Shown here: one piece after another, positions 20,971 through 22,125 of the stretch | Layout: each line of letters begins with the position of its first letter | Position numbering within the stretch: position 1 is the stretch's first letter | Origin: an uncultured Verrucomicrobiae bacterium | GTDB lineage: Bacteria; Chlamydiota; Chlamydiia; Chlamydiales; Rhabdochlamydiaceae | Direction: 5' to 3' | Assembly: GCA_963718565.1 (NCBI GenBank) | Contig: OY970364.1 | Location: 896,001-960,000 of the forward strand | DNA length: 64,000 nucleotides | Program-made: the position numbers and the translations under genes | Notes under the pieces: model-generated | The model's database searches: none | What the model was told of the DNA's origin: nothing | Seen by the model: the letters and a program-made list of their open reading frames with translations, nothing else

Positions 20971-22125
20971 ATGAAAAAGTTAGAGCCATTTGCAAAACTC
21001 CTCATACTTGAGAAAGTAAAAGAGCCGCCGCCAAGTCAAAAGATGGCAAAAGGGCGATTTTATGCGGCGCGCATTTTTGCAAGTGGCTCGTTATACCAGG
21101 TTCTGCTGATCTGCGCTTTTTCCATCAAAGTTCATGCTTTGGCACAGCTCCCCTACAACCTAGAATTAGCATCGCAAGATTTCGTTTTAGAGACGAAAAG
21201 AATTGAGATCCCAGGATATCCTCACGCGTTCAACCCCGGGATCATTCGCTGGCAAGGACGTTTGCTTTTAAGTTTTCGTATTATTTCCAACCCCCAGCAA
21301 TCTTTCAATACCGAGATTGGTCTGGTATTTTTAGATGAAAAGTTTTGTCCTGTCGGAGAGCCGCAATTGTTAAGCTTAAGAGATGAGTACTCCCCAGCTC
21401 CCTCACGTGCAGAGGATGCGCGCCTAATCACGTTCGGCGATAGGCTTTATATGGTCTATGACGACAATATTGAATCCAAGGTCAGCAAAGGGGGTTTTAG
21501 AGTGTATGTCGCCGAAATTCATTATGATGGCGAACATTTTATTGCCGATCCCATTGAATGTCTTAAATATTTTGAAAATGAAAGTAGAAATGTTCGCGAA
21601 AAAGCTTGGGTGCCTTTTGAATTCAACGGACAATTACTTTTGGCTTACAGTCTCCTTCCCCACAAAATTTTTTATCCCCGCCTCGATGGAACAGGGATCT
21701 GCGACACCGTTGCCTACACGGAAAGCACTATTTCCTGGGATTGGGGAATCTTGCGCGGAGGAACTCCAGCCTTGATTGAAAAGGAAGGCTATCTTGCCTT
21801 TTTTCATTCTTCAATAGTCATGGAGAGCACTCACTCTTCCGGAAAACAGATGGCTCACTATTTTATCGGCGCTTATCTTTTTGCCCCTGAACCGCCATTT
21901 GCTATTCTCAAAATCAGCCCTAAGCCGATTATTGGAAAGAACTTTTACAGTGGAGCTCGATACAAACCCTACTGGCAACCCATCCGATGCGTATTTCCTT
22001 GTGGATATATCAGCGATGATCAATACATTTGGATCACATATGGCAGAGATGACCATGAAAGTTGGATTGTCAAACTCGACAAAAAAGGTCTATTAAACAG
22101 TCTTATTCCTTGTTTAAAAAATTAA
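20971..22125 (+). CDS. Secreted beta-propeller glycan enzyme, paralog 2, with an in-frame family-A insertion in its signal peptide
   Basis: FNPG, EDARL, EKAWVPF, LRGGT, YGRDD; clear paralog of the upstream gene. Confidence 0.65.
   Translation: MKKLEPFAKLLILEKVKEPPPSQKMAKGRFYAARIFASGSLYQVLLICAFSIKVHALAQLPYNLELASQDFVLETKRIEIPGYPHAFNPGIIRWQGRLLLSFRIISNPQQSFNTEIGLVFLDEKFCPVGEPQLLSLRDEYSPAPSRAEDARLITFGDRLYMVYDDNIESKVSKGGFRVYVAEIHYDGEHFIADPIECLKYFENESRNVREKAWVPFEFNGQLLLAYSLLPHKIFYPRLDGTGICDTVAYTESTISWDWGILRGGTPALIEKEGYLAFFHSSIVMESTHSSGKQMAHYFIGAYLFAPEPPFAILKISPKPIIGKNFYSGARYKPYWQPIRCVFPCGYISDDQYIWITYGRDDHESWIVKLDKKGLLNSLIPCLKN
20983..21089. mobile_element. Family A MITE variant (107 bp), intragenic and in frame
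   Basis: gagccatttgcaaaa / ttttgcaagtggctc ends; TSD gtta (20979-20982, 21090-21093). Confidence 0.85.

Follow-up and report, generated by a model that had tools for sequence, protein, structure and literature searches.

In-frame insertion of a miniature transposable element into a putative signal-peptide n-region, and the excess of its family at such sites, in a Rhabdochlamydia-like bacterium

We describe a 107-bp transposable element that lies in frame, after codon 4, in the putative signal-peptide-encoding start of a glycoside hydrolase-type gene of an uncultured bacterium placed in the Rhabdochlamydiaceae. The gene belongs to a 64,000-nt stretch of contig OY970364.1 (forward-strand positions 896,001 to 960,000), hereafter the window, and the element to a family of transposable elements of the miniature inverted-repeat kind (MITEs), here called family A, whose copies were traced through the whole genome. 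Copies that persist in genes keep the reading frame, are free of stop codons and sit at gene edges, chiefly in the first codons of exported proteins; their hosts are intact, and signal-peptide-like starts carry more insertions than expected. We consider it probable that the insertion is specific to this lineage, and that landing close to translation starts followed by purifying selection has left in-frame copies at the n-regions of signal peptides.

Results

A GH130-like gene with 37 extra codons in its leader

The host gene (20971..22125, plus strand; 384 codons including the insert) encodes a glycoside hydrolase or phosphorylase of GH130-like (DUF377) type whose N-terminus is a putative signal peptide. 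Its Pfam match is to PF04041 (Glyco_hydro_130), at 31.8 bits where the cut-off is 26, and database homologs carry the name 'predicted GH43/DUF377 family glycosyl hydrolase'; a Pfam scan at E <= 0.01 returned PF04041 alone, and no extended-signal-peptide domain. The original start codon, ATG at 20971..20973 (+), lies 5 nt past the stop codon (20963-20965) of an insert-free paralog immediately upstream (19811..20965, +; 53% identical, recognised by open reading frame (ORF), Pfam and genome search), an arrangement also found in the orthologs.

One copy of a 4-bp target-site duplication (TSD), GTTA (20979..20982, +), is followed, past codon 4, by the element itself (20983..21089, +) and by the second GTTA (21090..21093, +). 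The element is a non-autonomous, internally deleted member of the type-B subfamily of family A, bounded by a 15-nt left terminal inverted repeat (TIR; 20983..20997, +) and a right TIR (21074..21089, +), which pair as inverted repeats of 15-16 nt; its RNA is predicted to form a single long hairpin (-41.6 kcal/mol; 200 shuffles give z = -5.0). An Rfam search found no family match to it, the two sub-threshold matches falling outside the element. It contains an in-frame ATG (21043..21045, +; codon 25), a candidate alternative start. Directly downstream of the second GTTA lie the native hydrophobic core and cleavage region of the putative signal peptide (21094..21144, +), assigned from the translation, our hydrophobicity rule (given below), which the core satisfies, and alignment with the orthologs, whose N-termini are similar.

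Because element and one TSD copy together measure 111 bp (107 + 4), or 37 codons, and the element read in phase 0 runs for 35 and two-thirds codons without a stop, the gene remains open and intact. The insertion, its coordinates and its counts are as the preliminary description of this DNA had given them. Its claim that removing the insert leaves a start comparable to that of a signal peptide is likewise borne out: once element and one TSD copy are deleted in silico, the start codon stands 4.0 codons ahead of the junction and a hydrophobic stretch follows at once, much as in the closest database homolog. That homolog (83% identical, 349 aa, 88% query coverage) is the nearest among the best 120 of 956 matches at E <= 1e-30, and it has the same first four residues as the window gene and then a hydrophobic run.

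Comparison with relatives marks the segment as a lineage-specific insertion. The gene occurs in 25 of 41 genomes searched (this genome, G000, and 40 relatives), in orthologs that are 56-79% identical and stop-free. None of the 11 congeneric ortholog loci whose N-termini were read has the 107-bp insert; all 11 show instead the stop of the upstream paralog, a few bases, an ATG, two to five codons and the hydrophobic core of a signal peptide. Among the best 120 database homologs, only the protein itself covers the insert and the other 119 lack it; the closest relatives bearing names are a Candidatus Rhabdochlamydia metagenome-assembled genome and others labelled Verrucomicrobia, from which the organism is taken to be chlamydia-like. 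Longer homologs (367-439 aa) were considered as further cases of N-terminal insertion, and those inspected proved mostly to be over-called starts or unrelated extensions. Both junctions are found without a single difference in contigs from a soil-metagenome study (two of its runs), possibly the source sample; four runs yielded no contig that skips the element, at a depth of only 2-3 that makes them uninformative on excision or empty-site alleles.

Family A is a recent, lineage-specific burst

A BLAST search with the 107-bp element gave 83 matches in the 2.28-Mb genome, and a search for the terminal motif, allowing up to 3 mismatches, gave 489 ends. Pairing these yielded 112 elements of 20-422 bp with no transposase gene inside, chiefly 24 copies of 182 bp, 19 of 257-259 bp and 14 of 20 bp; another 146 ends, at up to 2 mismatches, lack a partner. 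Of the 112 paired copies, 66 have flanks that agree over 4 bp and no more, and 3 have flanks that agree over 5 bp. The sequence duplicated follows TWWA (T 69%, W 81%, W 81%, A 69%) and its surroundings are AT-rich. With TIRs, a TSD of fixed length, small size, many copies and no internal transposase gene, family A is a MITE family. It is also a recent and lineage-specific burst: copies are 96-99% identical to the consensus of their class, and the 24-nt terminal consensus has 182 matches here (98 + 84 on the two strands; none for a reversed control pattern), two in relative G008, one in G003 and none in the other 38 relatives.

The preliminary description had noted that the ends of the 107-bp copy (GAGCCA/TGGCTC) differ from those of other copies yet still pair, and had taken them as co-mutated. 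The pairing stands; the changes are not private or compensatory, being a trait of the type-B subfamily. Type-B termini occupy both ends of 5 paired copies, and 19 left and 8 right ends match them within 2 mismatches, which argues that the GAGCCA/TGGCTC ends were inherited from a type-B master. The right TIR fits the type-B consensus, the left arm is a hybrid (outer six bases type B, adjoining inner bases type-A-like), and the copy is without the left internal module that longer type-B copies have. A further early remark, that the insert encodes a peptide matching ARFYAARSFA as read from intergenic copies, is correct; this peptide is the phase-0 reading of the 182-bp consensus.

No autonomous element with family-A ends was found in the genome or in relatives G008 and G003, which with the genome made up the DNA scanned. 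Pairs of ends 0.45-6 kb apart enclose host genes or, in one instance, an insertion sequence (IS) of the ISAs1 family at genome position 1624273, flanked by family-A ends and the duplication TGAA. This IS (L016, genome 1624000-1626300; a 422-aa transposase with Pfam DDE_Tnp_1_assoc and DDE_Tnp_1; 13 copies of ~100% identity) was rejected as the partner because family-A ends are absent from its 12 other copies and this one has itself gone into a 113-bp variant of family A. The ends of two further DDE_Tnp_1 IS types, of 2074 bp and 1181 bp, are unrelated to family A, and the family-A-like matches in G008 and G003 are only small copies, those of G008 without a transposase.

Some size classes merit description in their own right. 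In the 20-bp class, the outermost 10 bp of each terminal repeat meet at a hexamer common to both, TTGCAA, to give a perfect palindrome; its 14 genomic copies (for example window 26454-26473 and 47860-47879) have flanks identical over at least 4 bp in 8 cases. With its TSD it measures 24 bp, or 8 codons, and it lies in frame within a RluD-like gene and other ORFs. It has the look of an in-frame scar, left where long copies have collapsed time and again. The 257-bp subfamily (for example genome 790282-790538) differs from the 258/259-bp subfamily (for example window 31378-31635) by small indels. The former preserves the frame, has almost no intergenic copies, and lies in open frames of at least 250 aa in 8 of 9 recognisable copies; the latter shifts the frame, has TAA/TAG in its core, and lies outside long ORFs in 11 of 11. 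A script-made table that adds three unrelated low-scoring elements to the 257-bp type gives 8 of 12 against 0 of 11 in open frames (P = 0.0013).

Copies survive at gene edges and in frame

Site statistics were compiled for the 69 paired copies with exact duplications, the 43 without being excluded. All 69 were removed in silico before 1860 genes were called as longest ORFs of at least 100 codons (87% coding). Intergenic DNA received 41 of the 69 (uniform expectation 13%), the 40 codons that open the longest ORF 16 (9.6%), the last 15 codons 7 (3.5%), and stop codons 4, leaving a single copy in a gene interior, that of a MutY-like gene, where uniform placement would put 74%, or ~51 copies. Gene interiors make up 74% of the genome length and hold 63% of all 48,140 TWWA sites, so target availability does not explain their depletion. 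At the 3' edge, no more than 3 nt separate the junction from the end of a stop codon in ~14 of the 69 cases (genome 413061, 1685420, 2019489 and 2052013 among them); the duplication there takes in the stop (TAA/TAG plus one base), and the stop is retained and the protein unaltered.

Length follows the same pattern: 16 of 17 genic copies preserve the frame compared with 30 of 52 elsewhere (one-sided Fisher P = 0.004), and the only frame-breaking one lies upstream of the start of ribosomal protein S12. Genic copies are thus not scattered at random or mostly frameshifting, with 1 of 69 in an interior, nor are their hosts decaying.

The 182- and 257-bp consensus sequences (G+C 55-58%) are stop-free in 3 of 6 readings. 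Their phase-1 open reading contains a 20-residue hydrophobic stretch between Lys/Arg, and both phase-2 readings are hydrophilic. Phase use differs with the compartment of the host (Fisher P = 0.009; host classes were assigned by us from the insert listing and Pfam, and the counts are small). Eleven signal-peptide-like hosts use phase 1 in 8 cases, phase 2 in 2 and phase 0 in 1, the GH130-like gene; the six other hosts of long inserts (OppF-like, TsaB-like, RluA/D-like, MutY-like, chorismate-binding and SET-domain) all use phase 2. The hydrophobic, positively flanked frame is accordingly found in 8 of 11 exported hosts and in 0 of 6 others. All eight phase-1 copies lie in the sole stop-free orientation (binomial P = 0.004).

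Signal-peptide-like starts carry an excess of insertions

Genes were scored as signal-peptide-like if their start encoded a 10-residue uncharged window with a mean Kyte-Doolittle value of at least 2.0, 1.75 or 1.5. Twelve insertions lie within 10 codons of the nearest candidate start, and 7-9 of these hosts are signal-peptide-like, as against 16-31% of all genes (binomial P from 0.009 to 5e-5, by threshold and background). By density, the first 10 codons of 502 signal-peptide-like genes (15.1 kb) received 9 of the 69 insertions, or 0.60 per kb, where 0.46 were expected under uniform placement, 0.50 from TWWA sites and 0.64 from a 16-nt position weight matrix (PWM) of the target (P ~1e-8 to 1e-9). 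The first 10 codons of other genes received none (0 per kb; expected 1.2-1.6), a slight undercount, as a TsaB-like gene has its insert ~4 codons past a TTG start that the rule skipped. The 36 nt upstream of starts received 19 (0.395 per kb; expected 1.5-4.1) and other intergenic DNA 22 (0.084 per kb; expected 8.0-15.4). Relative to a neutral proxy of intergenic DNA that pools these last two classes, density in the first 10 codons of signal-peptide-like genes is higher (PWM-weighted P = 2.6e-5).

The preliminary description had observed that both intragenic copies of the window lie in frame past codon 4 and had suggested, from these two, either targeting of signal-peptide n-regions or selective tolerance there. 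The observation holds for the window, and the genome-wide search for termini that it proposed, carried out here with crude gene calls, recovers the enrichment in the first 10 codons of signal-peptide-like genes (9 of 69 against 0.46-0.64 expected, with none in other genes). The suggestion nevertheless needs qualifying, since cytoplasmic proteins and the 3' ends of genes have in-frame copies too. As to mechanism, the data point to both: a hot zone next to starts (19 of 69 within 36 nt upstream) and strong purifying selection (1 of 69 in an interior).

Other hosts, and independent insertions in sister species

The second intragenic copy of the window is a 182-bp type-A element (27878..28059, +; TSD TATT at 27874-27877 and 28060-28063), in frame past codon 4 (ATG at 27864) of a gene for an exported FKBP-type (FKBP_C) protein. 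Across the genome, the likely exported hosts have Pfam families SBP_bac_3, FKBP_C, Legionella_OMP, Peptidase_S13 and SGL (lactonase-like), with two glycosyltransferases among them, and a MORN-repeat host shows a Cys-bearing lipoprotein-type motif after the insert. Other hosts include OppF-like ATPase, MutY-like, RluD-like and TsaB-like genes.

Where this genome has an insert in the FKBP-type, glycosyltransferase and OppF-like ATPase genes, the orthologs in four sister genomes are contiguous. In the OppF-like ABC ATPase (L030, genome 790282-790538), an 87-codon insert separates two conserved N-terminal strands; the orthologs, contiguous at that point, are 75-76% identical downstream. The glycosyltransferase host (L025, genome 1881051-1882412) has its insert past codon 1; it is of the DXD-motif kind (PF04488) and gives, in addition, a sub-threshold Pfam line for the glycosyltransferase domain of TcdA/TcdB type (19.2 bits, where 23.6 would be needed).

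Sister species have insertions of their own at the same N-termini. In G002, the ortholog of the GH130-like gene contains an unrelated 117-bp MITE (L006 2514-2630), in frame past codon 3, with 22-nt perfect inverted repeats, TATA on both sides and a net gain of 41 codons over the G003 ortholog. This second family is common to several species of the genus, this one included (16 matches in G002, 27 in G003, 28 here, for example genome 1549015-1549094, and 4 in G001). In G001, the ortholog (L045) of the L025 glycosyltransferase has a related MITE of ~85 codons, with type-B-like ends, in frame past codon 6, an insertion independent of the one found here.

Apart from these elements, two pairs of identical repeats 23.6 kb apart were seen in the window, of 73 nt (9831-9903 and 33446-33518) and 52 nt (9971-10022 and 33525-33576), each at 100% identity. 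They adjoin tandem WD40-repeat genes at ~32000-35000 and may be the ends of another mobile element.

Discussion

The pattern is best explained, in our view, by insertions that would land preferentially near translation starts, with purifying selection then clearing nearly all copies inside genes. The survivors would be in-frame copies in the n-region of signal peptides, a part that would tolerate changes of length and be cleaved off after export, together with a few in linkers or at the termini of cytoplasmic proteins; the n-region of a cleavable leader may be the most permissive place for extra residues. In the GH130-like gene, translation most likely begins at the original ATG, coupled to the stop of the upstream paralog, and would give a 58-residue leader. 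The ATG at 21043 could also serve, and judged by its sequence the leader from either start is of signal-peptide type. Of the last 15 inserted residues, which adjoin the native hydrophobic core, three are positively and none negatively charged; the part of the leader beside the core would thereby keep its net positive charge, and by analogy with naturally extended signal peptides export is for that reason probably kept, possibly at a slower pace.

Several results weigh against this account. The gene calls (longest ORFs) and the signal-peptide rule are crude and of our own making, and they underlie the P values. Signal-peptide n-regions have a higher insertion density than intergenic DNA, so tolerance alone cannot account for the bias. 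Most signal-peptide hosts read the element in phase 1, which would give them two hydrophobic segments. Three open readings in six are within chance for the G+C content of the consensus sequences (2000 dinucleotide shuffles; P = 0.079 for 182 bp and 0.069 for 257 bp), and we therefore rejected as unproven the idea of an element built to be translatable. Finally, since the genome has three paralogs of the GH130-like gene, one directly upstream, the gene could be dispensable and merely not yet decayed.

The density excess raises an alternative in which the transposase itself prefers the 5' ends of exported-protein genes, so that the enrichment would be mutational and not selective; AT-rich, easily opened DNA at starts, or DNA held at the membrane through coupled transcription, translation and insertion, might provide its basis. 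The gradient in density, from 0.60 per kb in the first 10 codons of signal-peptide-like genes through 0.395 in the upstream 36 nt to 0.084 in other intergenic DNA, speaks for such targeting, as does the arrival of different MITE families at the same N-termini in sister species. The 16-nt target PWM, however, assigns these regions only 0.9% of expected insertions, and the single interior copy, the 16 of 17 frame-preserving copies and the 8 of 8 phase-1 copies in stop-free orientation would require selection in any case. We therefore think targeting by itself unlikely, though it is the alternative we take most seriously. Slightly less probable still is that translation starts within the element and yields a near-normal signal peptide, which would make the upstream fusion irrelevant. 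Candidates for such a start exist: the in-frame ATG at 21043 is followed by Lys/Arg and then hydrophobic residues (the type-A consensus has GTG at this position), and the terminal repeat offers AGGAG with an in-frame TTG just behind it in phase 1 only, the phase of 8 of 11 signal-peptide hosts. Yet the ATG lacks a Shine-Dalgarno-like sequence and sits inside the hairpin, in a stretch predicted to be paired, the spacing from AGGAG to TTG is just 2 nt, and the original ATG still stands in the place for coupling, 5 nt past the upstream stop; the orientation bias of the phase-1 copies (P = 0.004), moreover, would be irrelevant were the start at the far end of the element.

The potential dispensability of the gene suggests a further reading, that of a neutral hit: the insert would have disabled export or function of a protein whose paralogs are redundant, with no time yet for stops to accumulate. 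The directly upstream paralog may supply such redundancy, there are two others in the genome, and the family is a recent burst with copies 96-99% identical to consensus. The same pattern is nonetheless seen in single-copy housekeeping and envelope genes (OppF-like ATPase, MutY-like, PBP4 and an outer-membrane protein), and frame and orientation biases reveal selection on genic copies. The copy in the GH130-like gene shows 7% difference from its nearest relative across 87 nt, and still the 1155-bp gene has acquired neither stop nor frameshift. We regard this reading as quite improbable.

Landing near starts and subsequent purifying selection thus remain our preferred explanation. A broader proposal, which we offer tentatively and would sooner doubt than believe, is that signal-peptide n-regions are preferred landing and retention sites for several MITE families, with the frame matched to the compartment of the host and two-part leaders produced routinely. 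If true, such MITE-derived leaders could change the timing or route of export. The concentration in signal peptides provides a concrete example of where proteins tolerate inserts of 8 to 87 residues and suggests a possible origin of extended signal peptides. There is also a practical side: such inserts mislead gene callers and signal-peptide predictors, shifting starts and causing secreted proteins to be missed, and annotation of these genomes should therefore mask or model the elements.

Relation to known systems

The closest parallel is found in the Rickettsia palindromic elements (RPEs), an extreme case of repeats lying in frame within genes (PMC10969869). Like family A, these are short palindromic repeats of an obligate intracellular host that sit in frame in unrelated genes, housekeeping genes included, without breaking them, according to the passages of that review which concern them (PMC10969869). 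Family A differs in belonging to a Chlamydiota-like phylum and in having clear TIRs and 4-bp TWWA duplications, the likeness being one of behaviour. Most genic copies of family A lie in signal-peptide n-regions, a preference that the passages on RPEs do not mention (PMC10969869). Rickettsia is the best-known home of in-frame coding repeats. Their presence in a second lineage, unrelated but again obligately intracellular, suggests that compact genomes in general come to have them when mobile elements undergo a burst.

BOX, RUP, ERIC, BRE and Correia elements are also described, in the relevant parts of a second review, as non-autonomous repeats with open frames that are fused in frame to genes internally and at their 3' and 5' ends (PMC3184786). 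Family A resembles them in having copies at stops and in the last 15 codons; unlike them, as those parts describe them, it is concentrated in the first 10 codons of exported proteins and varies its reading frame with the compartment of the host. The phrase 'signal peptide' does not occur in the available text of either review (PMC10969869, PMC3184786), and a full-text literature search, covering papers outside subscription and no supplements, turned up neither a bias toward signal peptides nor elements of this kind in Rhabdochlamydia-like bacteria.

For the leaders themselves, the nearest comparison is with type V secreted proteins, in which, as an excerpted account has it, an N-terminally extended Sec signal peptide still exports its protein and can slow export (PMC5422565). 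The leaders predicted here have a like layout, with an additional charged and hydrophobic part ahead of the native core. In type V secretion the extension is conserved and inherited, in autotransporters and TpsA proteins; here the extra part comes from transposon DNA, in proteins that are unrelated. Repeats lying in frame within genes are already known, and the bias toward signal-peptide n-regions is the feature that this family adds.

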